From: Elusimicrobiota bacterium
GTDB taxonomy: Bacteria > Elusimicrobiota > Elusimicrobia > UBA1565
Length of the DNA stretch: 14,144 nt
Direction of reading: 5' to 3'
Assembly (NCBI GenBank): GCA_043819795.1
Contig: JBDREN010000184.1
Span: forward strand, 1 to 14,144
A program made the position numbers and the translations under genes. Shown here piece by piece: positions 1,877-13,764 of this stretch. Each line of letters opens with the position of its first letter. Position 1 is the stretch's first letter. The notes under the pieces were generated by a model. The model saw only the letters and a program-made list of their open reading frames with translations. It ran no database searches and was not told where the DNA came from.

Positions 1877-2344
1877 ATGAACCCCCGTGAAAAGACGGTC
1901 CTTATCGTGGACGACGACGAGGCGATGCTCAATCTGCTCGAGATCCTCGTTCACCGGGACGGGTTCAACGTCCTTCGCGCGGATTCCGTGGACGCGGCGG
2001 TCTTCAAGCTTCGGCGCAATCCGGACGTGGTGCTCTTGGATCTCATATTCCCCGGAACGGAGACCGGCCTGGACGTGCTGGAGCTCATCCGCGGATCCGA
2101 GGGGCCGAAGCCTTTCGTGATCGTCATCACCGCGCACGAGAGCGAGCATCCGGTGGTCGAGGCGGCGCGTAAGGACCCGAACGTGTCCTATTTCCTCAGC
2201 AAGCCGATCAAGCAGGATCAGCTTTTGGAGCTGATGCACCGGATGCTGCGGACTTGGCCCCCGGAGGGCGCGATCAGGGGGCACGACGAGGACGCGCCCG
2301 AGGAAGCCGTTGCGCAGACTCAGTCAGGACGGAACCCGGGATGA
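1877..2344 (+). CDS. Single-domain response regulator (CheY-like receiver), 155 aa
   Basis: VLIVDDD acidic pocket, phospho-acceptor Asp in VLLDLIFP, Thr in IVITA and conserved KP (LSKPIK). No output domain. GAGGTGG RBS. Confidence 0.9.
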   Translation: MNPREKTVLIVDDDEAMLNLLEILVHRDGFNVLRADSVDAAVFKLRRNPDVVLLDLIFPGTETGLDVLELIRGSEGPKPFVIVITAHESEHPVVEAARKDPNVSYFLSKPIKQDQLLELMHRMLRTWPPEGAIRGHDEDAPEEAVAQTQSGRNPG

Positions 2345-2808
2345 ACGAGGGAACGCCGTTTCCGTCGGAGAGAGCGTCCGCCAAGGATAAGCTGGTCATG
2401 GTTGTCGACGACGACGAGAGCTTCCTGGACATCCTCGAGGTCATCGTCAAGAGGGAGGGCTTCCGCGCCGCGCGCGCCGTAGACGGGCGGGAGGCGCTGC
2501 GCATGATCGACGCTCAGGCTCCCGACCTGATCCTGCTCGACTTCATGATGCCGGGGCTGTGCGGCTTCGAGGTCCTCAAGGAGCTCCAGTCGGGCGACGC
2601 GAGCAAGACTCCCGTGGTCGTGATCACGGGACGGAATAACGATCCGGGGATGGTCGAGATGGTCCGGAAGGAGCCGAACGTATACGAGTACCTGAAGAAG
2701 CCCATCAAGCAGGCCTCGTTCGGGATGCTCCTGCACCAGATCCTCGGGACCCGGCCGCCGGACACGCGCCCCGCCCCCGCGCGGGGCCCGCTATCCAGCG
2801 CCTGGTAA
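2341..2808 (+). CDS. Single-domain response regulator (CheY-like receiver), 155 aa, paralog of the upstream gene
   Basis: ATG 2341 overlaps the upstream TGA (ATGA coupling), so this is a better start than 2254. Motifs VMVVDDD, ILLDFMMP, VVITG and LKKPIK. Confidence 0.9.
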   Translation: MNEGTPFPSERASAKDKLVMVVDDDESFLDILEVIVKREGFRAARAVDGREALRMIDAQAPDLILLDFMMPGLCGFEVLKELQSGDASKTPVVVITGRNNDPGMVEMVRKEPNVYEYLKKPIKQASFGMLLHQILGTRPPDTRPAPARGPLSSAW

Positions 2809-2823
2809 TACGCCCGCCGAGCG

Positions 2824-2865
2824 GTTACTCAACACCCGGTGCCTGGCACCGCTTCTTTGAGTAAC
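2824..2865. terminator. Nested hairpin between convergent genes, probable bidirectional terminator
   Basis: Outer stem GTTACTCAA (2824-2832)/TTGAGTAAC (2857-2865) and inner inverted repeat CGGTGCC-T-GGCACCG (2837-2851), between the stops at 2808 (+) and 2880 (-). Confidence 0.55.
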
Positions 2866-2879
2866 TCGCGTCCGCCGAT

Positions 2880-4025
2880 TCAGCGGGTGAGGGCCTTCTT
2901 TCGGGAGGGATCGGGCTCGCGCTCGAGCGCCGAGAGGATGAGGTCGCAGACTTCGCGGACGCAGCCCGCGCCGCCCGCCTTCCTGCAGACGTAGTGCGCG
3001 ATCCGCTTGGCCTCGATGCAGCCATTGGAGGGCGTTGCCGCGAACCCGACCTCCTTGAGCACCGAGAGGTCATTCACGTCGTCCCCCACGTAGGCGACCT
3101 GGTCCAGGGATATCCTCATCTTTCTGGCGATCCCGCGCAAGACCGGCAGCTTGTCCTTGACGCCCTGGTGGAGAAAGTCGACTAGCAGCTTCTGGGCGCG
3201 CCGCTCCACGATCCCGGTCTCCTCGGCGGTGATGAAGGCCGTTTTGAACCCCCGCTTGCGGAGGAGCTCCAGGCCCTTCCCGTCGCGCGTGTTGAACTTC
3301 TTCATCGCCTCCCCGGCGTCCGTGTAGTACATCCCGGCGTCGGTGAGGACCCCGTCCACGTCGAGGGCCAGCAGGCGTACGGGCTTTGGGGCGTTCTTGA
3401 GGCCGTCCACCAGGCGTTTCTCCATGAGCTTCTCCACGATGAAGAGGTCGAGCTCGGTGTCGATCTCGAAGTTGTAATCGCCGTCCAGCAGGTAGCGCTC
3501 GACGACGTCCCCGGTCCAGCGGCCGGCGAGAACGGTCCCGGCGTCCACCACGTAGACGTTCCCGTCGTCGTAGAAGAAGCCCTTGTAGTCCTGGCGCCTG
3601 AGGTTGTTGTGGCTCCCGTACTCCAGGAACTTGCAGTAATACCCCGTGGCCAGGCTGTTGGCCTTCTTCTTCCGGAAGCGCTTGAGGCAGGCGTCGACGA
3701 GCTCCCCGTCCCGGATGGGGGAGGTGGGCTGGAGCACGGCCAGGGTGTCGGCCCGGAAATGCTCCAGAACGTGCCGCAGGACCGAGAGCGTCGTGGTCTC
3801 GTCGCTGGCGAGGCGTTGGGGCCTCTTCAGCACCTTGGCGCCGAAGCTCCGCGCGACGCGGGCGATCTCGGCGTCCTCAGTGGAGACCACGAAGTCGTCG
3901 AGGAGGGCGGATTCGGCAGCCGCCTTGATTGACCAGTAAATGAGGGGCTTGCCGAGCACCTCCCGCAGGTTCTTCCTGGGGACGCCCTTGCTGCCCCCGC
4001 GCGCCGGAATCACTCCCAGAGTCAT
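2880..4025 (-). CDS. Bifunctional acylneuraminate (CMP-nonulosonate) cytidylyltransferase fused to a KdsC-like HAD phosphatase
   Basis: N-terminal NeuA motifs IPARGGSKGVPRKN, VLQPTSPIR and FEIDTELD. C-terminal HAD/KdsC motifs LALDVDGVLTD, FNTRDG, VAYVGDDVND and GGAGCVREVCDLIL, with the catalytic Asp residues intact. Confidence 0.9.
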   Translation of the reverse strand: MTLGVIPARGGSKGVPRKNLREVLGKPLIYWSIKAAAESALLDDFVVSTEDAEIARVARSFGAKVLKRPQRLASDETTTLSVLRHVLEHFRADTLAVLQPTSPIRDGELVDACLKRFRKKKANSLATGYYCKFLEYGSHNNLRRQDYKGFFYDDGNVYVVDAGTVLAGRWTGDVVERYLLDGDYNFEIDTELDLFIVEKLMEKRLVDGLKNAPKPVRLLALDVDGVLTDAGMYYTDAGEAMKKFNTRDGKGLELLRKRGFKTAFITAEETGIVERRAQKLLVDFLHQGVKDKLPVLRGIARKMRISLDQVAYVGDDVNDLSVLKEVGFAATPSNGCIEAKRIAHYVCRKAGGAGCVREVCDLILSALEREPDPSRKKALTR

Positions 4026-4030
4026 GGTGC

Positions 4031-5191
4031 TCAGGTGAGCTGCTCCAGGACGGCGACGGCGTTCTCCTTGGTGAACTCCACGGGGTTGTTGCCGAGCGCC
4101 GGCGTGAGGTCCAGGCCGCGTTCGGCCAGGAACGCGACGTCCTTTTTTTGGATGCCCCGCTTGCTGAGCCCTCCGTTGATGAGCGGCAGGGCGGGGAAGT
4201 CCTTGAACAGCGAGATGAACCGTGCGGCCTTCGTCTTGGCGTCGCCGCCTCGGTCCGCGCCCTCGATCACGTCGAGAAGCTCCGCGTACTGCGTGCAGCC
4301 CTTCTTGATGTTGATCTCGACTACCTTGGGGATGATCAGTCCGACGGCCACGCCGTGGGGCACCTCATGGTAGATGCCGAGCGGGTACGCCATGGAGTGG
4401 CAGGCGCCCGTATTGGAGTTGAAGATGGCGAAACCGGCGAGGCAGCTGCCGAGCAGCATGTTGCGCCGGGCCTCTAGGTCGCCGCCGTCGCGGAGGGCCT
4501 TGGGCAGGTTGTTGTAGGCCAGGGCGAACGCCTCCCGGGAGTACATCCGGGTGACGCGGTTCGCGCACCTCGCCGTGTAGGACTCGATGGCGTGGGCCAG
4601 CGCGTCCATGCCCGTGGACGCGGTGACATGGTCCGGCATGGAGAGGGTGAGCGGGGCGTGCAAGATAGCGTAGTCGGGGCACACCTGCGGCCCGCCCAAG
4701 GCTCTCTTAAACGAGGTCTCCTTGTTGACCAGCACGGCCCCCGGCGTGACCTCGCTTCCGGTCCCGGCCGTGGACGGGACCATGATCTTCGTGATGCCCG
4801 GGGGGAGCGGCTCGCCCGTGCCGTGGTACTTGGTCACGGAATCTTCGGTCTGGGCCATGACGGAAACCGCCTTGGCCAAATCCAGCGTGCTGCCGCCGCC
4901 GACCGCGACCAGGAGATCGACGTCCTTGCCCCGGAATATCCGGGCGACCTCGTCGACCCGGTCGGTGGTGGGCTCGATGGCCTCCGGCATCGTCAGAACG
5001 ATGGGGTACTTCGCCCGGAGGGCCTCGGCGAGGCCCTCCATCCTTTTGTCGCGGGACAGGGCCTTGTCGCAGATGACGCCGACTTTAGTGGAGCGCTCGG
5101 ACTCGGCCACCTTCAGGACGGAGGCGATGAGGTCGTCCGAGACGATCACCTCCGTCTTCGCCTGGAACTTGAATATCTCGTTATTCGCCAC
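4031..5191 (-). CDS. Iron-containing alcohol dehydrogenase (Fe-ADH family; KdnB-like by context)
   Basis: GGGSTLD, PSTAGTGSEVT, and metal ligands in DALAHAIESY, CHSMAY and VPHG. The GTG start overlaps the upstream gene's end by 11 nt. Confidence 0.9.
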   Translation of the reverse strand: MANNEIFKFQAKTEVIVSDDLIASVLKVAESERSTKVGVICDKALSRDKRMEGLAEALRAKYPIVLTMPEAIEPTTDRVDEVARIFRGKDVDLLVAVGGGSTLDLAKAVSVMAQTEDSVTKYHGTGEPLPPGITKIMVPSTAGTGSEVTPGAVLVNKETSFKRALGGPQVCPDYAILHAPLTLSMPDHVTASTGMDALAHAIESYTARCANRVTRMYSREAFALAYNNLPKALRDGGDLEARRNMLLGSCLAGFAIFNSNTGACHSMAYPLGIYHEVPHGVAVGLIIPKVVEINIKKGCTQYAELLDVIEGADRGGDAKTKAARFISLFKDFPALPLINGGLSKRGIQKKDVAFLAERGLDLTPALGNNPVEFTKENAVAVLEQLT

Positions 5192-6371
5192 GGAGCTTCT
5201 CGAGCGTCTTGAGCGTCGCGTCGGTCATGTGCCGGAACTGCTCCTCGCTCATCCACAAGTGGAAGGGGAACGAGAGCATGTTGTCGAAGAATGCGTCGGT
5301 TTCCGGGCAGTCGTGTCCGCCGAAGCCCATCTTCTTGAACAGCGGGTAGCGGTACAGGGGATAGTACTGGACGACGGTCTTGACCCGGTGCTCCCGGGCC
5401 ATGACGCGCATGAAGTCGTCGCGGGTCTTGCCCCGCCCCCCGCCGTCGTACCGCGCGGGCAGGAGGTGGTAGGCGTGCCCGCAATGCTCCGGGACCTTCT
5501 GGAACCGGAGCTCGGGATACTCCGCGAAGGCCTTCTTGAAGCGTTTCGCGCGCTCGACCCGGGCCGCGTTCATGCCGTCGAGGCGTTCCAGGAGCTTGGA
5601 GGCCAGCGCGCACTGGGCCTCCCCGAGGGAGAAGTTGTGGGGCCAGACGCCCGGGATGTCCAGGTCCACGTTCGCCATGGCCGGAAGCCAGTATTCCTCC
5701 CGGGGGCCTTCGAATCCGCGGATGCCGTTGTGCCTGAGTCCCGGCACGAGCTTCGCGTGCTCGGCCGAACGGACCGTCAGGATGCCGCCCTCGCCCAGGG
5801 TCGTCAGGCTTTTCTGGCAGTGAAAGCTGAAAGCCCCGAAGTCCGCGATGGAGCCGGCTTTCTTGCCCTTGTACTCGGCCCCGATGGCCTGGGCGCAGTC
5901 CTCCACGACGAGGCAGCCGTGGGCGCGAGCGAGCTCCATGATGGGGTCCATGTCCGCCATGAGGCCGTAGAGGTGGACGACGACGATGACCTTGGTCCGG
6001 GGGCCGATGTTTTTCCCGATCGACGCCGGGGAGACCACCAGGGTGTCGGGGTCGATGTCGGCCCAGACGATCTTGGCTCCGGTGCGGGCGAAGGGGATGG
6101 CCGTCGCGCAGAAAGTATGCGCGGGGATGATGACCTCGTCGCCGGGCCCCAGGCGGGTCAGGATCGCGGCGAGGTCCAGGGCGTTGGTGCAGTTGGCGAC
6201 CGCGAAGGCGTGCTCGACGCCGTTGTAGCGGCAGAAGTCCTCCTCGAGCTTTTTGAGGCGGGGGCCTTGGGTGAGGGGGTCGCCCGTGCGCATGACTTCG
6301 GCCACGGTCGCGATCTCCTCCTCCGTGTAGTCGAAGGCCCTGCCGCTCCACGGGACGATGAACTCGTCCAC
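5181..6371 (-). CDS. DegT/DnrJ/EryC1/StrS PLP-dependent sugar aminotransferase (KdnA-like by context), 396 aa
   Basis: Probable start is GTG at 6371 (MDEFIVPWSG...), 2 nt after the NeuB stop, with AAGAAAGG upstream. Motifs LGPGDEVIIPAHTF, VVHLYG, VEDCAQA and the PLP lysine in SFHCQKSLTTLGEGG. Confidence 0.9.
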   Translation of the reverse strand: MDEFIVPWSGRAFDYTEEEIATVAEVMRTGDPLTQGPRLKKLEEDFCRYNGVEHAFAVANCTNALDLAAILTRLGPGDEVIIPAHTFCATAIPFARTGAKIVWADIDPDTLVVSPASIGKNIGPRTKVIVVVHLYGLMADMDPIMELARAHGCLVVEDCAQAIGAEYKGKKAGSIADFGAFSFHCQKSLTTLGEGGILTVRSAEHAKLVPGLRHNGIRGFEGPREEYWLPAMANVDLDIPGVWPHNFSLGEAQCALASKLLERLDGMNAARVERAKRFKKAFAEYPELRFQKVPEHCGHAYHLLPARYDGGGRGKTRDDFMRVMAREHRVKTVVQYYPLYRYPLFKKMGFGGHDCPETDAFFDNMLSFPFHLWMSEEQFRHMTDATLKTLEKLRGE

Positions 6372-6373
6372 GG

Positions 6374-7276
6374 CTACGTGCCTTTCTTTCCTGCCAGAGG
6401 GGCGCCTATTGACGGTCTGTTCCATTTGAGTTTGTTCCGCTGGGGGATTTCGATGTCCAGGATGTCCTTGGGCTTTTCCTGCGCGGCGGCGGCCACGCAC
6501 TTGATGTCGCGGATCAGGCGGCGCAGGCCGTCGGGCTCCAGCGAGGCGGCGTGGTCGGTCCCCTTCCAGGTCCGGTTGAGGGTGTAGTGCCGCTCGATCC
6601 AAGCGGCGCCCAAGGTGAAGGCCGCCATGTCGATGGCGATCCCGTTGTGATGCCCGGAGAAGCCCACGGCCTTGATCATGCCGCCGTAGGTTTTCCGCAG
6701 GCGCGGGATCTCGAGCAGATAGCTGTCCTCGTCGGGCACGGGATAGCCCGAGGTGCAGGCGTAGAGGACCGCGTCCTTGGCGCGGCCCTTCCCGGCGAGG
6801 AAGGAGACGAGCTCCTCTTCCTCCTTGCGGGTGGTCATCCCGAGGGAGACGTGGATCTCGCCGCCGAACTCTCCGCAGACGTAGCCGAGCATCTCGGGGT
6901 TCGTGTTGCACGCGGAGGGGAACTTGATCAGCTCCGGCTTGAGCGAAACGATCTCCCGGGTGGAGGTCATGTCCCAGACGGAGCAGGAATAGACGACGCC
7001 CATGGACTCGCAGTACTCCTTGAGATCCCGGTGCTGGTCGAGGGTGAGCTCCAGGGTCTCCCGGTGCTCGCCGTAGGTGCTCCCGTAGGAATGGAACGGC
7101 TCCGGGTGGCAGGTGCCGTACTCCTCCGGGCTGAGGCTTTCGCGGGGGTTGCGCTTCTGGAACTTCACGTGCCCGGCTTTGCAGAAGATCTTGGCGACCT
7201 CGATCATCTCCCGGGCGATGCTCATCTCGCCTTTGTGGTTGCACCCTATCTCGGCGATCACGTTTGCCGGCTGCAT
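6374..7276 (-). CDS. NeuB-family N-acylneuraminate(-9-phosphate)/nonulosonate synthase, short form lacking the C-terminal SAF/antifreeze-like domain
   Basis: VIAEIGCNHKG, VKFQKRN, ACTSGYP, GFSGHH, IERHYTLNRTWKGTDHAASLEP. At 300 aa it ends soon after the TIM barrel. GGGAGGAG RBS. Confidence 0.9.
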   Translation of the reverse strand: MQPANVIAEIGCNHKGEMSIAREMIEVAKIFCKAGHVKFQKRNPRESLSPEEYGTCHPEPFHSYGSTYGEHRETLELTLDQHRDLKEYCESMGVVYSCSVWDMTSTREIVSLKPELIKFPSACNTNPEMLGYVCGEFGGEIHVSLGMTTRKEEEELVSFLAGKGRAKDAVLYACTSGYPVPDEDSYLLEIPRLRKTYGGMIKAVGFSGHHNGIAIDMAAFTLGAAWIERHYTLNRTWKGTDHAASLEPDGLRRLIRDIKCVAAAAQEKPKDILDIEIPQRNKLKWNRPSIGAPLAGKKGT

Positions 7277-7277
7277 G

Positions 7278-8174
7278 CTAGCTCCTCCCGCCTCCCTTGC
7301 GAAGTACGGCCCATAGAGTGTCCGCGTGGCCGGCCCGGACGAGGGCCTCGGCGTAGGCCTTGTTGAGTGACCCGGGGAACACGCGGCCGTAGAACCCCGT
7401 CCCGCCCGGCTTGCCCGTCAGCAGCCACCGGATGTGGTTCGACAAGTCGTAGCGCTGGACCCCGGCGATGTCCGCCTCGGCTCCCGCGGCGCGGGCCGCG
7501 CGCTCCAGGGTGCTCTTGGAGAAGTACCAAAGATGCGCGTTCTGGTAATAGAACGCCGCATAGGCGGGGAGGCGGTACAGCGTCAGGAGGGCGTCCTCGA
7601 CGTCGGGCACCTCCACGGCGATCCGGCCGCCGGGCTTCAGGCGCGCCAGGAGCGACTCGATGAACTCGACCGGGCGCAGCACGTGCTCGAGCACATGAAA
7701 AAGGACGATGAGGTCGAAGCCGCGGTCCTCGACGTCCTCCAGCTTCTCGCGGATCTCCAGCCCCAGCTTCTCATTGGCCCAACGACGGTAGGCGACGGTC
7801 GGCTCGATCCCCGTGACGCGCCCGACCAGGGGGCGCACCGAGTGAAGGAACGCCCCCGAGCCCGAGCCCAGCTCGAGCAGGGAGGTCCCGGGGTTCAAAA
7901 GTCCCCCGAGCCGGCCCACGCGCTCCCGCGCCTCCGGCAGATCCTCATTGTGCTTCCGCTCGGGGCTCACGCCGGGGTCGTACTCGGTGCGGTAGGTCTC
8001 GGCGTAGAACTTCTTGAGGTCCTCCTCGGTCGGCAGGGGATCGAGGCGGACAAGCCCGCAGTCCTGACAGCGGCGGACCTCCAGGCGGGGTTCGTGACGG
8101 ACTCCTTTCCGCACCGGGATGGAAGACTCCTCGCCGCAGAGGACGCAGCGGATGCTCGTGGACACGTTGTTCAC
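7278..8174 (-). CDS. Class I SAM-dependent methyltransferase with N-terminal zinc ribbon
   Basis: CVLC...CQDC, SAM motif LLELGSGSG, FHVLEH and LKPGG. Start is GTG 8174 or GTG 8165, because the TTG at 8213 is the promoter -35 box. Stop lies 1 nt before the NeuB ATG. Confidence 0.85.
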   Translation of the reverse strand: MNNVSTSIRCVLCGEESSIPVRKGVRHEPRLEVRRCQDCGLVRLDPLPTEEDLKKFYAETYRTEYDPGVSPERKHNEDLPEARERVGRLGGLLNPGTSLLELGSGSGAFLHSVRPLVGRVTGIEPTVAYRRWANEKLGLEIREKLEDVEDRGFDLIVLFHVLEHVLRPVEFIESLLARLKPGGRIAVEVPDVEDALLTLYRLPAYAAFYYQNAHLWYFSKSTLERAARAAGAEADIAGVQRYDLSNHIRWLLTGKPGGTGFYGRVFPGSLNKAYAEALVRAGHADTLWAVLRKGGGRS

Positions 8175-8183
8175 GGTATCAGC

Positions 8184-8213
8184 ATTATAGGCATTTGGCG
8201 AGATCAGGGTCAA
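8184..8213 (-). promoter_or_regulatory. Sigma70 promoter of the five-gene sugar operon
   Basis: Minus strand TTGACC (8213-8208), 18 nt spacer, perfect TATAAT (8189-8184). Confidence 0.75.
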
Positions 8214-8363
8214 CGCGGACCCGACGGGCTATGCCGGTTTCCGCGCCCTTTTCTTCTGCTTGAATCCTTGATAATTCGAAGGGATAAGCGCCACAAGACG
8301 AGCTTGCGGCTCTGGATTAACGGGACGAAGGAACCGGGAGCCGCGACATTCGTACGTGTGGGT

Positions 8364-9095
8364 ATGGCCAAGCCCGAGCAGCTGTGGTTGGACTTGGCGC
8401 GCCCGGGCCCTTCCCCGCATCGCGCTCGCGCGCGGGAACGGAACGGCCGGGTCGCGATCGAGGCCGACTATTCGGAGGACGTGTCGGGCATCCCCGCCAT
8501 GCTCGGCCGCGCCGGAGCCTGGGTGCGCCGCTGCCGCCTGCCGGCGGGGGACTATCTTGTGGGGCACCGGTTCCTGGTGGAGCGCAAGGCCGCCGGGGAC
8601 TTCGCGCGGTCGCTTTTCGACGGCAGGCTGCTTGCGCAGCTCCGCTACTTGAAGCGGTCGGTGGTCCCCTGCCTGCTCGTGGTCGAGGGCTGCCCGGGAT
8701 ACTACGAGCGGTTCTGGCCGCCCAAGCTCCGTCCCGTCCTTCTCTCCGCCGCGCTGGACTTCCGGGTGCCCGTGCTGTTCACCCGGCGCCCCGAGGGCAC
8801 CGTCGAGCTCCTGCTCGCGCTGGGCAGGCGCTGCCTGACGTTCCCGGCCGCGGAGTTCTTCGTCCCCGCTCCCCGCAGGAAGCGGCCGGACAAGCGGGAG
8901 CGCGCGTTCGTGGAGTTCTGGCGCGCCCTGGAGTCCATCCCGCTGGTGGGTCCGGCGGCGGCCATGCGTCTGGCGGGCCGCTTCGGAAGCCTGGAGTCGC
9001 TGCGCCGGGCCTCGGTCGCGGAGTTGAGCCGGGTGCGCGGCGTCGGTCCTTTGCGGGCGGGGAACATCCGCGCCGCCCTGCGGGAGAAGTCTTGA
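8364..9095 (+). CDS. ERCC4/XPF-family structure-specific endonuclease with C-terminal tandem helix-hairpin-helix, 243 aa
   Basis: LPAGDYLV...VERKAAGDF (GD-n-ERKxxxD), DGRLLAQL, LLVVEG, then ESIPLVGPAAA...FGSLESLRRASVAELSRVRGVGPLRA. The ATG 8364 start has a weak RBS; the upstream part of ORF 7434-9095 is antisense to the methyltransferase. Confidence 0.85.
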   Translation: MAKPEQLWLDLARPGPSPHRARARERNGRVAIEADYSEDVSGIPAMLGRAGAWVRRCRLPAGDYLVGHRFLVERKAAGDFARSLFDGRLLAQLRYLKRSVVPCLLVVEGCPGYYERFWPPKLRPVLLSAALDFRVPVLFTRRPEGTVELLLALGRRCLTFPAAEFFVPAPRRKRPDKRERAFVEFWRALESIPLVGPAAAMRLAGRFGSLESLRRASVAELSRVRGVGPLRAGNIRAALREKS

Positions 9096-9324: not shown

Positions 9325-10155
9325 CTACTGCGGCGCCGAGACACAGCCCCCATCAATACATACGAGGTTTCCCGGACATCCGTAGGGGCCGTCGACACCA
9401 CAAGTGCCGTCGCCATAGCAACGGACATTAAAGTATCTGAATTGATACCCGACGCCCCCGATATAACGGGTAGCCGAACCGAGGCATGTGTCGGACATGG
9501 TGGTGCCGTCCCAGGCAGTGCAGGTTTGCTTCACAATATCGTAACCACCGGTGGTAGGGGTTACCGTGCAGTTGTCCGACCCTTCCGATGTGTCCAGCGG
9601 ATCGGTACAGCCTGGGTCCGCCGGGTGGTCGGTCTGGCCGTCTCCGTCGTTGTCCTCCCCGTCCTCGCACTGGCTCTTCTCGATCGGGGCGCACAGGCTC
9701 AAAACCGGATCCCCTTCCGCCCCCGTAACGGCCCAATTGGCGCAAATAGCATCAATCAGGAGATTCAAGGTGGCGTCGTCAAGCAGGCCAGTCGGTCCCA
9801 TGGGGCCCTGGATACCGGGGTCGCCCTTATCGCCTTGGATCCCCTGGTCGCCCTGCGGACCTTGGGGTCCTGGCGTCAATTCTATGTTCTCGATCATCCC
9901 GCGGAGTTCATCGGCAGTTGCCTGAGCAGAATCGGCAGCGGCCTGGGCGGCAGCAGCATCACCCACAGCACCGTTGGCAGTGGCCTGAGCGGCATCGGCA
10001 GCTGCCTGAGCATCGGCAGCATCACTCACAACATCGGATGTCTGTCCTTGGAGTTGCTGGAAGGGCCGGCCTTGCGCGGATTGGGCTTGGGCTATTCCGA
10101 CCAAAGCGAAAGCAAAAAAGCCGGCGGCAATGATCGTCAGGTATTCTTTTTTCAT
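9325..10155 (-). CDS. Secreted protein with Ala-rich coiled coil, short collagen repeat, Ca-binding DxDxDG Cys motif and Cys-rich C-terminus, 276 aa
   Basis: ATG 10155 with AAGGAG RBS. Signal peptide MKKEYLTIIAAGFFAFALVGIAQA; duplicated DAADAQAAADAAQATA-like unit; about 10 Gly-X-Y triplets (GPQGPQGDQGIQGDKGDPGIQGPMGPTGLL); CEDGEDNDGDGQTDHPADPGC; ends CPGNLVCIDGGCVSAPQ. Confidence 0.82.
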   Translation of the reverse strand: MKKEYLTIIAAGFFAFALVGIAQAQSAQGRPFQQLQGQTSDVVSDAADAQAAADAAQATANGAVGDAAAAQAAADSAQATADELRGMIENIELTPGPQGPQGDQGIQGDKGDPGIQGPMGPTGLLDDATLNLLIDAICANWAVTGAEGDPVLSLCAPIEKSQCEDGEDNDGDGQTDHPADPGCTDPLDTSEGSDNCTVTPTTGGYDIVKQTCTAWDGTTMSDTCLGSATRYIGGVGYQFRYFNVRCYGDGTCGVDGPYGCPGNLVCIDGGCVSAPQ

Positions 10156-10314
10156 CTCATCTCCTTGTTCCGACCCTTCTGCGTTTCGAGTGGGTCCCGT
10201 CGGGGAAATGGCTGGCTCCTCCTGTCGACTCAGCCATCCATGCCTAACATCTTGCCACCACGCCGTAAAGGGGTTCGTGTCAAGACGCACGCCCCGACTA
10301 CTATGTTTAGCAGT

Positions 10315-10343
10315 AGTATAACCCCCGTTCGCTGACAATTCAA
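10315..10343 (-). promoter_or_regulatory. Sigma70 promoter for the collagen-like protein gene
   Basis: Minus strand TTGAAT (10343-10338), 17 nt spacer, TATACT (10320-10315). Implies a leader of about 150 nt. Confidence 0.6.
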
Positions 10344-11412: not shown

Positions 11413-12786
11413 ACTTCAAAGCTTTCCGGTATATGGGCCTCGGGCCTGGCCGTCTGCATCGCGGCGGCCGCCGCGCACGGCCAGCACGGCCGCGAAGGTT
11501 CGGCGGAAGGCCGCTTCCCTCAGGCCGCCGGCCCGGATGCGGACCGCTCCCCATCCGCCACGAACCGGGAGTTTCTGAAAGAGCTGGGGAGGCTTGAACG
11601 AAGATCGAGGGGCGTTCTTCCAGCCGAGCGGGCGGGGCTCGAAAAAACGCGACGGAGCCTGAGCAAGCTTGGCCCGCGTCGGCGTTACGAGTTCCAGCGC
11701 CGTTATCTGGACGCGCTATCCGCGGCCGGACGGATGCGCGAAGCGCGGCGGCAAGGCGACGGCGAGCGCGCGGCGCGGCACGCCCGGGAGCTGGGGAGCC
11801 ACTTCGGCTTCCTCGGGGAGAACTACGGCCTCGTGGGGGGCGGTCTGGTCGCGCTCGAGGTGCGGGAAAGATACGAGGGCCCGGGAGGAGCGGGCGAGGT
11901 GGAGCAGGCCGACGTGGACTACGGCTTCGCGGCCGTCCAGGCTTTCCCGAAGCACGCGGGGGTCTGGCGCGCTCTGGGCGGGATGCTCCGCCGAGCGGGG
12001 AGGCATGAGACGGCGCTGGAGGTGTACCAGGTCGCCGCCGAGCTGGATCCGGCGAGCCTCGAGGCCTACGCGGGCATGGCCGACTCGCGCTATAAGCTGG
12101 GGGACTACGACGGCGCGGTGGAGGACGCCAAGCGGGCGCTCGAGATAGACCCGCGCGACGCCGCGGCCAAGACCCTGCTCAAGCTGGCCGCCAGGCACGG
12201 CGGGACGCCGGGACAGTCCGCCGGCACTCCCGGACAGGCGGCGGCCCGAAGACCGGCGCGGACCGCCGTTCCCGCCGGCCAGGCGCCGGCCGAAGACGCG
12301 ACCCCGGAGCGCGGCCTCCATGTGGGCGCGCCGCCGCCGCCCGGGACTGTCGGGGAGCAGTCGTCGCAGCAGAAACCTGAAGAGGAAAAGCAGGGGATTT
12401 TGAGCCGGACTTTTTATTGGCTGAGGGGCAAGATCAACAGCGCCGAAGAGTTCGGGCTGAAGAAAGTGGATGGACATCTGGACATAGAGCCAGGGGAGCG
12501 ACAAACGGCTTTGCGGGGTGCCGCTCTTGGTGCGAAATACGGCGTGGGCGCGGGGGCTGTGGGGGGCGCCTTCCTCGTCGGGACTTCGTTTTGCGCTCCC
12601 TCGGTCGTCAATCCGGCTCTCTATGTGCCGTGCATCGGTGGAGGGGCGGCCGGAGGCGCGGCCGTGGGCGCACCTCTTGGAGCATATGTGGGAGCCTTTG
12701 CGGGCGTGAGTCTCAAGCGGATTCGGATGTGGCTCGAAGAGGTGCGTGAGGATGTCTTCGGGGGACGGCAAGTCGAAGGAGACTGA
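11413..12786 (+). CDS. TPR-repeat protein with Pro/Ala/Gln linker and C-terminal Gly/Ala-rich hydrophobic (glycine-zipper) domain; start uncertain
   Basis: TPRs: VWRALGGMLRRAGRHETALEVYQVAAELDP and AYAGMADSRYKLGDYDGAVEDAKRALEIDP. The tail has many small-xxx-small motifs. The frame is open from 11413 and encodes a signal-peptide-like stretch, but the first ATG/GTG/TTG is at 11734. Confidence 0.7.
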   Translation, partial: TSKLSGIWASGLAVCIAAAAAHGQHGREGSAEGRFPQAAGPDADRSPSATNREFLKELGRLERRSRGVLPAERAGLEKTRRSLSKLGPRRRYEFQRRYLDALSAAGRMREARRQGDGERAARHARELGSHFGFLGENYGLVGGGLVALEVRERYEGPGGAGEVEQADVDYGFAAVQAFPKHAGVWRALGGMLRRAGRHETALEVYQVAAELDPASLEAYAGMADSRYKLGDYDGAVEDAKRALEIDPRDAAAKTLLKLAARHGGTPGQSAGTPGQAAARRPARTAVPAGQAPAEDATPERGLHVGAPPPPGTVGEQSSQQKPEEEKQGILSRTFYWLRGKINSAEEFGLKKVDGHLDIEPGERQTALRGAALGAKYGVGAGAVGGAFLVGTSFCAPSVVNPALYVPCIGGGAAGGAAVGAPLGAYVGAFAGVSLKRIRMWLEEVREDVFGGRQVEGD

Positions 12787-12787
12787 T

Positions 12788-13264
12788 ATGGAGCAGCGTC
12801 ATGAAGCCGCTATCGCGGCGCCACTTAAGATGCATTCCCTCATCCTGCTCGCGGGGGGAGCTTTGACGCTTGTTCCATTCATGGAATTGTCCATGGGCTG
12901 GTTGTTGGTCCAGGTATTCGGCGTTAAGCTCGGGTGGGGCATTACTTTGGCGTATTATACGTTCGTCACCGGGCAGTTGCTCATCTTCTTGCCGCTCCTG
13001 ACGATACCGCTGTGTTCGCTGTGGGTATATTACCGTGGCGGGGACATTCGGGCCGGACGGAGGTTCTTGGGTCGGGGTTTCCTCCGTTATTTCCCAGCGT
13101 TATTCGGGTTGGGACTACAGATGTATATTGTGGGCATCCATGGGATATACGTTGCCCCCGCCATATTCGGCTCGCTGCTGGTGGGCTACGCGATTTGGCT
13201 ATTGCGTCGAGACCGTGCCGCGATAGACGCCGTCATCGGGGAAGAGAAACCCCATGAGGCATAA
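12788..13264 (+). CDS. Small multi-pass membrane protein, paralog 1 (candidate immunity protein), 158 aa
   Basis: AAGGAGA RBS; ATG 1 nt after the upstream TGA; about 4 hydrophobic segments; motif FLPLLTIPLCSLW...RGFLRYFPALFG...WLLRRDRAA. Confidence 0.8.
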   Translation: MEQRHEAAIAAPLKMHSLILLAGGALTLVPFMELSMGWLLVQVFGVKLGWGITLAYYTFVTGQLLIFLPLLTIPLCSLWVYYRGGDIRAGRRFLGRGFLRYFPALFGLGLQMYIVGIHGIYVAPAIFGSLLVGYAIWLLRRDRAAIDAVIGEEKPHEA

Positions 13265-13316
13265 GATCGTCGTTCTTCTCCCTCTTGCGGTCTTGGCTAA
13301 ATTCCTCGGAGACTGA
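13254..13316 (+). pseudogene. 20-codon mini-ORF MRHKIVVLLPLAVLAKFLGD, probable collapsed remnant of a secreted-protein gene
   Basis: ATG 13254 overlaps the end of paralog 1 after GGGGAAGAG. Signal-peptide-like N-terminus. Ends GGA GAC TGA-N-ATG, the same junction as the TPR gene at 12778-12790. Confidence 0.5.
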
Positions 13317-13317
13317 A

Positions 13318-13764
13318 ATGGATGCCAAGGGCGAGATTTGCGTTCGCAAGACGATGGTTCTTCTTTCATGCATCATCGCCGCTGTCGGAATCCTGACTCT
13401 CAATGCTTATGTTGACCTCATATTGAAGGCGATTTTCAAAGCGGATGTTGAGTGGGCCGCGGCGTGGTCCGCGAGAGCATGGTTCATATCACAGATCATC
13501 ATCTTCCTGCCGATCATGACGGTGCCCGTCTCTGCCTTGTGGGCTTATCGCCGCACTGGTAGTCGCGGCGCGGGCTGGCAGGTCGTTATTCGTGGATTCT
13601 TGCGCTACACACCGGTCCTGGCGGGAGACCTTCTGCAATTGTTTGCCATGCGTTCAAAGCATTCTCTCTTTTCGCCCGGCGTTTTCGGGATCCTGACGAT
13701 TATCTACGCGGGGTGGCTTATCAGAAAGGATCGTGCCGCAGCGGGGGGACATGCAAATCCCTGA
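13318..13764 (+). CDS. Small multi-pass membrane protein, paralog 2, 148 aa
   Basis: GGAGA RBS; ATG 13318; motif FLPIMTVPVSALW...RGFLRYTPVLAG...WLIRKDRAA aligns with paralog 1. Confidence 0.8.
   Translation: MDAKGEICVRKTMVLLSCIIAAVGILTLNAYVDLILKAIFKADVEWAAAWSARAWFISQIIIFLPIMTVPVSALWAYRRTGSRGAGWQVVIRGFLRYTPVLAGDLLQLFAMRSKHSLFSPGVFGILTIIYAGWLIRKDRAAAGGHANP

Follow-up and report, generated by a model that had tools for sequence, protein, structure and literature searches.

The contig JBDREN010000184.1 of an Elusimicrobiota bacterium (assembly GCA_043819795.1; 5.0 Mb, 90% complete) was analyzed over its whole length of 14,144 bases, which is referred to below as the window. Five co-directional genes on its minus strand fill positions 2880–8174 and form an operon, with a G+C content of about 65% across all of it. 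A preliminary description, made from the letters of this DNA, took the operon to encode a nonulosonic acid made by a phosphorylated route of the KDN (3-deoxy-D-glycero-D-galacto-non-2-ulosonic acid) type and aminated by enzymes resembling the oxidoreductase KdnB and the aminotransferase KdnA, and this description was followed up computationally. The features of the operon, read along the minus strand, are the following.

8184..8213, minus strand: sigma-70-like site, TTGACC-18 nt-TATAAT, 11 of 12 positions matching; putative promoter.

7278–8174, minus strand: methyltransferase, GTG start, 298 amino acids; PF13489 Methyltransf_23, 9.7e-24.

6374–7276, minus strand: NeuB-family ulosonate synthase, ATG start, 300 amino acids; PF03102, 3.5e-60; no SAF domain.

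5181–6371, minus strand: DegT/DnrJ/EryC1-family pyridoxal phosphate-dependent aminotransferase (DegT below), GTG start, 396 amino acids; PF01041, 3.3e-90.

4031–5191, minus strand: iron-type alcohol dehydrogenase of group III (Fe-ADH, or ADH below), GTG start, 386 amino acids; PF00465 and PF25137.

2880–4025, minus strand: NeuA::HAD fusion, ATG start; PF02348 at residues 4–127, then a KdsC-type HAD domain.

3411–4025, minus strand: NeuA-type cytidine monophosphate (CMP)-nonulosonate synthetase domain, fusion residues 1 to ~205; PF02348.

2922–3395, minus strand: KdsC-type HAD phosphatase domain, predicted KDN-9-phosphate (KDN-9-P) phosphatase, fusion residues ~211–368; NF058599, TIGR01670.

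The coordinates and families of the open reading frames (ORFs) match the five coupled genes that had been claimed (methyltransferase, short NeuB, DegT, Fe-ADH and NeuA-HAD), and the junctions of +1, +2, −11 and +5 nt are identical to the earlier figures, the −11 being an 11-nt overlap of the DegT frame with the start of the ADH. The claim of a single promoter agrees with one near-consensus sigma-70-like site ahead of all five genes; TTGACC-18-TATAAT (8213–8184) is the sole such site on the minus strand within 2600–8500, and two sites were counted over both strands versus 0.6 ± 0.8 in shuffled sequences. From the end of the site to the GTG at 8174 there are 9 nt, so an mRNA started there would be leaderless or nearly so. 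A Pfam scan of the operon and its flanks gave no NeuC, nucleoside diphosphate (NDP)-sugar dehydratase, acetyltransferase or glycosyltransferase; the first three had been reported as absent, and none was found among the genes of the window.

Two enzymes that the pathway to CMP-KDN requires, a NeuB-family synthase condensing phosphoenolpyruvate (PEP) and a NeuA-type CMP-nonulosonate synthetase, are present. The NeuB carries PF03102 together with the conserved motifs: K38, K41, K118, H209, H210, E228 and H230 were each found in 117 of 117 relatives, and E9 in 115 of the 117. Its family is very large (8000 relatives were scored, about 65% identical across phyla). The protein scored 170 bits against TIGR03569, the model of N-acetylneuraminic acid (Neu5Ac) synthase (cut-off 399.65), and 108 bits against the PseI model (cut-off 340). 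We predict that it is a KDN-9-P synthase, which would use PEP and, as the presumed second substrate, mannose-6-phosphate (mannose-6-P).

The NeuA domain scored 82.6 bits against PF02348 (cut-off 22.6), and 115 bits against the PseF model (cut-off 205.7) versus 60 bits or less against the KdsB models. Its matches in the Protein Data Bank (PDB) are the CMP-NeuAc synthetases 1eyr and 1qwj, and also PpNeuA 9t4z; it is 54% identical to the NeuA of G009, a genome of the same family that is discussed below. The best model for the HAD domain was that of KDN-9-P phosphatase, NF058599, with 161 bits against a cut-off of 180. The domain scored 151.7 bits against the subfamily model TIGR01670 (cut-off 106.95) and 145.8 bits against the KdsC equivalog PRK09484 (cut-off 208), and in the PDB it matched KdsC 4um5 with 131 bits and the BT1713-type phosphatase 3e81 with 127.5 bits. 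Elsewhere in the genome of the window a third CTP_transf_3 match (G000:C87:10514-10900; 44.5 bits) shares 43% identity with residues 1–74 of the G009 NeuA; it may belong to a second gene for activating a nonulosonate or Kdo-like sugar (Kdo, 3-deoxy-D-manno-oct-2-ulosonic acid).

The hallmarks of the canonical Neu5Ac pathway, namely NeuC and a NeuB that has SAF and passes the equivalog cut-off, were not found. The window has no PF02350 gene, and tblastn with the NeuC of G009 (E ≤ 1e-8) gave no match to a NeuC/WecB homologue in the 90%-complete genome. KDN rather than Neu5Ac is favored by the missing SAF domain of the NeuB, by the fusion of phosphatase and NeuA in one protein and by the failure to find a NeuC/WecB homologue in the genome; for this combination the KDN-type phosphorylated route of the preliminary description remains the best reading. 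In the passages of PMC6200933 that concern it, the phosphorylated KDN route is established in Bacteroides thetaiotaomicron and Prymnesium parvum, and the characterized enzymes use mannose-6-P. The core sugar would be other than KDN if the NeuB used N-acetylmannosamine-6-phosphate or a pentose or heptose phosphate, and this would suit both the equal score of the HAD domain against KdsC and the name N-acetylneuraminic acid phosphate synthase, which some JGI records give to relatives of the NeuB. Such a substrate is nevertheless quite improbable in our view, given that tblastn found no UDP-GlcNAc 2-epimerase homologue in the genome, that the characterized enzymes of the phosphorylated route take mannose-6-P (PMC6200933, in the same passages) and that Kdo genes are encoded separately in this genome. 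WaaA, KdsB and a KdsC-like gene are located outside the window, KdsB and WaaA on contig C83, and the operon is therefore not the housekeeping Kdo route.

The preliminary description had called the ADH and the DegT KdnA/KdnB-like. This holds at the level of the superfamilies and as an analogy, but not as orthology. KdnB (5k8c) matched the ADH with 72.3 bits and ranked 33 of 41 PDB matches, the nearest being methanol dehydrogenase, 1,3-propanediol dehydrogenase and lactaldehyde reductase (149–151 bits). KdnA (5k8b) matched the DegT with 127 bits and ranked 20 of 55, the nearest match being glutamine-scyllo-inositol transaminase with 174 bits. The DegT is 28–30% identical to KdnA-family proteins (L005, G009) and scored 241.8 bits against the PseC model (cut-off 423.5). 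Thus neither the KdnB-orthologous Fe-ADH nor the KdnA-orthologous aminotransferase of the pathway to 8-amino-8-deoxy-Kdo (Kdo8N) is encoded here. Both families are intact at their motifs, GGGS, D196, H200, H265 and H279 of the ADH being invariant in 97 of 97 relatives and Lys187, Asp158 and Gln161 of the DegT in 118 of 118. At least 120 relatives of the DegT were found at 60–69% identity, and a word-based search gave at least 119 of the ADH at 44–60%. These ADH relatives overturned the idea of a nearly unique ADH, to which the first scans had led with at most 36% identity among genome contigs and at most 49% among metagenome contigs; those scans relied on few exact 8-residue patterns. A search of the Atlas with the ADH gave only generic Fe-ADH clusters. 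On the basis of family and gene context, the ADH is predicted to oxidize one hydroxyl group of the nonulosonate in its free form, most likely that of the primary alcohol at C9, and the DegT, which belongs to a clade distinct from KdnA, is predicted to transaminate the resulting oxo-sugar.

The methyltransferase has an N-terminal, zinc-ribbon-like CxxC...CxxC segment and a Methyltransf_23 core dependent on S-adenosylmethionine (SAM). Its exact 298-residue sequence is present in the Atlas, so that another gene caller picked the same start. It shares 25% identity (E 4e-9) with the methyltransferase encoded after NeuB in another genome, G800. Its PDB matches are weak, the best scoring 31.7 bits, with the sugar C-methyltransferase TcaB9 at E 0.0015. 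Naming the methyl acceptor as N, O or C was considered and given up, since the PDB matches are weak and the Atlas clusters are those of a generic methyltransferase only. In P0352 (654 amino acids), a relative of the ADH that aligns to 72% of the query with 55% identity, the dehydrogenase is joined to radical-SAM and B12-binding domains (PF04055, PF02310). This is a hint that in some versions of the pathway the role of the class I methyltransferase falls to a cobalamin radical-SAM enzyme, possibly a C-methylase.

Our reading of the operon is that of a KDN-type nonulosonate pathway leading to a CMP-activated, amino-deoxy and methylated KDN, most likely 9-amino-9-deoxy-KDN, and we give it an even chance of being correct. 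In this pathway NeuB would join PEP and mannose-6-P to KDN-9-P, and the HAD domain would take off the 9-phosphate. The Fe-ADH would then oxidize the freed primary alcohol at C9 to the aldehyde, which the translationally coupled DegT would convert to the 9-amine. The methyltransferase would put a methyl group on some atom of the sugar, and the NeuA domain would activate it to the CMP-sugar for a transferase encoded elsewhere. The pathway would transfer the logic of Kdo8N to a sugar of nine carbons, using non-orthologous enzymes. We infer the C9 position of the amine, the order of the steps and the acceptor of the methyl group. The carbon that bears the phosphate in mannose-6-P becomes C9, so a C9 amine must follow dephosphorylation, which explains the presence of both a phosphatase and an ADH. 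C9 is also favored because the closest solved ADHs act on primary alcohols or aldehydes and because the genome G009 links the lineage of this ADH to KdnA.

G009 belongs to the family of the window's own organism and to a different genus. Its 6.5-kb contig (L170, G009:C147:1-6479) carries NeuB, NeuC, Fe-ADH, DegT, NeuA and a 382-residue ORF, in this order; the ORF has no Pfam match and no homologue in the window's genome. Both the NeuB (468 bits against TIGR03569) and the NeuC (415 bits against TIGR03568) are above their equivalog cut-offs, and the DegT is a clear KdnA-family enzyme (5k8b 296 bits versus 169 for the next match). In an IQ-TREE phylogeny of 54 Fe-ADHs the clade of the window ADH has support of 100/97, and the G009 ADH is its sister with 100/99. 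An AU test rejected the grouping of the G009 ADH with other KdnA-associated ADHs (p 0.00013), and a FastTree of 145 rows agrees with the IQ-TREE placement. The rows of these trees were picked by similarity to the query; KdnA was represented by proxies validated by bit score, and KdnB itself is absent, with no proxy. As the G009 cluster has no NDP-sugar dehydratase, the only sensible substrate of its ADH and DegT is the finished sugar acid, or free N-acetylmannosamine (ManNAc). The cluster is of the Neu5Ac type and is predicted from its genes to make an amino-Neu5Ac. The earlier proposal that oxidation followed by transamination acts on a finished ulosonic acid is backed, in part, by this KdnA-family DegT standing beside a sister ADH, and by analogy the gene context and the G009 cluster suggest that it is the terminal carbon of the free acid that is modified in the window as well.

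Does the pair then act at C9 or elsewhere on the sugar? The same pathway could run with replacement of a secondary hydroxyl, at C5, C4, C7 or C8, on either the free sugar or CMP-KDN; the C5 version would possibly turn KDN into a sugar of the neuraminic acid type without any supply of ManNAc. Ring ketones are what most enzymes of the DegT family aminate, the solved proteins that match this DegT best take scyllo-inosose and NDP-4-keto sugars as substrates, and the protein of the window lies outside the KdnA family. The Fe-ADH superfamily, for its part, includes secondary-alcohol enzymes. Yet primary alcohols are the substrates of the solved enzymes closest to this ADH, and the window has no acyltransferase to cap an amine at C5. 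In G009, moreover, the sister ADH occurs with a KdnA-family enzyme where the sugar already has its nitrogen at C5, as follows from a NeuC and a NeuB that both exceed their equivalog cut-offs. Amination at a secondary carbon is, on balance, unlikely.

The preliminary description had made co-occurrence of the ADH and the DegT with NeuB and NeuA genes in other genomes a condition of its proposal. Such co-occurrence was found in G800, in the contigs L179 and L180 and in G009, and the full set of functions (NeuB, DegT, Fe-ADH, NeuA and HAD), for which a search of gene neighborhoods had been suggested, was found again in G800. This genome is labelled Treponema primitia, a species with cultured strains, and an NCBI protein so labelled matches its ADH at 100% identity. 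Its genes are ordered HAD, NeuA, DegT (60%), ADH (51%), SAF-less NeuB (35%) and a Methyltransf_23 enzyme, with a 4-nt stop/start overlap at the ADH-DegT junction, and they lie inside a glycan locus with an ABC transporter, a Wzi-like protein and glycosyltransferases. In the metagenome contig L090 a DegT (56%) is followed by an ADH (49%), and the IMG/VR contigs L179 and L180 both have an ADH (31%) followed by a DegT (49%). L179, the only one of the two annotated further, has NeuA, a SAF-bearing NeuB, a second DegT, a GNAT protein and a GT2 glycosyltransferase downstream. It is a putative phage contig by its filing in IMG/VR (98,979 bases; locus L179:8655-20410). A Lar-like gene and an IS605-type TnpB on the opposite strand lie between its DegT and NeuA, and a DUF4910/DUF2172 protein between its SAF-bearing NeuB and second DegT.

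Among the 119 listed relatives of the ADH, 29 have a longest contig identical in size to that of one of the top 120 DegT relatives, six share such a match with a listed NeuB relative and four with both; in three ADH-DegT-NeuB triples of equal size the sources agree too. The ADH and the DegT are a conserved and usually adjacent pair. In random samples of genomes, several of them only partly scored so that the counts speak of sparseness in the samples and not of absence, a DegT orthologue was found in none of 400 other genomes of the window's own phylum (E ≤ 1e-70) and in none of 301 genomes of the phylum of G412 (E ≤ 1e-90), and an ADH orthologue in one of 151 genomes of the order of G413 and in none of 351 of the phylum of G415. 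Five genomes reached via the loci gave no DegT orthologue. The module is recurrent, sparse in the sampled genomes and probably mobile.

These data bear on two further explanations. If the ADH, the DegT or the methyltransferase were unrelated passengers, the product would be plain CMP-KDN, as might fit a window in which there is no transferase or other glycan gene and ADH orthologues as sparse as those just counted. The frames overlap or nearly abut, however, the same functions are kept in G800 in a different gene order, and the 29 of 119 ADH relatives are co-located with DegT relatives as judged by identical contig sizes, so that we find passengers hard to credit. The other explanation is that the ADH and the DegT act before condensation and supply an amino-hexose or another aldehyde or amine precursor, which NeuB would then join to PEP. 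NeuB does require an aldehyde substrate, the gene order NeuB-DegT-ADH is uninformative on the order of the reactions, and in G009 the C6 hydroxyl of free ManNAc would be open to oxidation. Against this, the phosphorylated route blocks the only primary alcohol of the hexose by phosphate, and the phosphatase is kept in both the window and G800. The pair also occurs with three types of NeuB (SAF-less 65%, SAF-less 35% and SAF-bearing), which is more easily explained if it acts on a shared product, at a feature common to all nonulosonates. The pair does not depend on the route by which the nonulosonate arises. We hold action before condensation to be improbable.

Several points weigh against a pathway to 9-amino-9-deoxy-KDN as a whole. 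The HAD domain is 19 bits under the equivalog cut-off for KDN-9-P phosphatase and scores similarly against KdsC, and the use of mannose-6-P by this NeuB clade is putative. Neither the ADH nor the DegT is an orthologue of KdnB or KdnA, no protein in the clade of the DegT is characterized and the solved enzyme closest to the DegT works on a ring ketone, and membership in the ADH family leaves it unfixed which hydroxyl is oxidized. With its long branch (1.25 changes per column), the G009 ADH may owe part of its sister placement to an artefact. Most of the co-location evidence is indirect, being drawn from equally sized contigs, and the contig of the window has no glycosyltransferase to give local support to a use of the product.

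More widely, the Fe-ADH/aminotransferase pair may be a widespread module that converts finished KDN (here) or Neu5Ac (in the sister genus) to 9-amino-9-deoxy nonulosonic acids, an undescribed class of natural sugars, which in the window would also be methylated and activated with CMP for surface display; the module would have spread by transfer across bacteria, archaea and phages. We advance this tentatively, with somewhat less than even confidence. Nonulosonic acids top the surface glycans of microbes and affect their recognition by phages, hosts and immune systems. To our knowledge, all bacterial amino-nonulosonates described, that is, legionaminic (Leg), pseudaminic (Pse), acinetaminic (Aci) and fusaminic (Fus) acids, gain their nitrogen at the stage of the NDP-hexose. 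Amination of the finished nine-carbon acid, if true, would be a new branch of nonulosonate chemistry, would give a zwitterionic sugar whose terminal amine is free or methylated and would widen the principle of Kdo8N beyond Shewanella. The enzymes could also aid the chemo-enzymatic synthesis of 9-amino analogues of sialic acid.

The genes flanking the operon encode an S9 peptidase, two response regulators, a TlyA-type FtsJ methyltransferase, a TPR protein and an alanine-zipper/collagen-like (lipoprotein-like) protein. The response regulators (1877–2808, plus strand) are two adjoining stand-alone receiver proteins, convergent on the 3' end of the operon, with no kinase or output domain within the window. 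The 337-residue ORF at 9325–10338 (minus strand) has a stretch of alanine zipper and a short G-x-y run of the collagen type, and its C-terminus is rich in Cys; both of its Pfam matches are weak, that to the alanine zipper (26 bits) barely above cut-off, and it may be a surface or outer-membrane protein. Two tandem ORFs without a Pfam match, of 172 and 159 residues (12746–13264 and 13285–13764, plus strand), have similar hydrophobic stretches and resemble paralogous small membrane proteins. This tandem (12746–13764) sits in the only part of the contig with a low G+C content (about 57% versus 65%).

The operon shares with the CMP-KDN pathway, as represented by the phosphatase BT1713 and synthase BT1714 of B. 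thetaiotaomicron and by the Kdn-9-P synthetase as well as the CMP-Kdn synthetase of P. parvum, a NeuB-family synthase, a KdsC-type HAD phosphatase, a NeuA-type cytidylyltransferase, the lack of NeuC and, as we would expect here, a phosphorylated intermediate. It differs from that pathway in the fusion of the phosphatase to NeuA and in the addition of the translationally coupled Fe-ADH, DegT and methyltransferase.

In the pathways to Leg and Pse there are likewise a DegT-family aminotransferase, a NeuB homologue and a CMP-synthetase, and PseC, PseI and PseF are among the best NCBIfam matches of the window's enzymes. In contrast to those pathways, which require an NDP-sugar 4,6-dehydratase and an N-acetyltransferase, the window has neither of these and no nucleotidase, and the scores are far under the Pse equivalog cut-offs. 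The G009 cluster is closer, having a sister ADH, a NeuA of 54% identity and an ADH-DegT pair between the synthase and NeuA; unlike the window it has NeuC, a SAF-bearing NeuB and a KdnA-family aminotransferase, no phosphatase and, as far as its 6.5-kb contig reaches, no methyltransferase.

In the Kdo8N pathway of Shewanella oneidensis (KdnB 5k8c, KdnA 5k8b), as in the window, an oxidoreductase of the Fe-ADH superfamily and a DegT enzyme adjoin genes for the synthesis and activation of an ulosonic acid. In the parts of PMC4402001 that treat it, the conversion occurs on the free sugar before CMP activation and KdnA aminates the terminal carbon of Kdo, in agreement with the title of the PDB entry; the pathway is also listed in PMC5125639. 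The enzymes of the window are non-orthologous to this pair (72 and 127 bits, well below many unrelated members of the families), the predicted sugar has nine carbons instead of eight, a methyltransferase is added, and the pair lies between NeuB and NeuA and is not linked to kdsB/waaA, which are on contig C83.

Kdo8N was considered exclusive to Shewanella in 2014, in the part of the review that covers it (PMC4402001). An Fe-ADH followed by a DegT was also found in genomes and contigs from Thermodesulfobacteriota, 'delta proteobacterium' metagenome-assembled genomes and metagenomes (L002-L005, L023, L091-L100; e.g. L005:9980-15600), with KdsB and the Kdo transferase WaaA after the pair in L004 and L005. 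The DegT of L005 is a strong orthologue of KdnA (5k8b 324 bits), and its ADH is not KdnB-like (5k8c 85 bits versus 300 bits for methanol dehydrogenase). From their gene content, loci of the L004/L005 type are predicted to provide Kdo8N-type lipopolysaccharide outside Shewanella by way of a non-orthologous oxidase.

A full-text literature search, with most subscription journals outside its coverage, gave no description of an ADH-DegT nonulosonate module or of the predicted product. The SugarBase preprint of 2026, in the passages available, reports unassigned CMP-ulosonic acids in environmental bacteria, and the words methyltransferase, dehydrogenase and aminotransferase do not occur in those passages. 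In summary, judged by its gene content, the operon is a variant that combines two known kinds of system, the CMP-KDN pathway and a tailoring of the Kdo8N type, with a predicted product.

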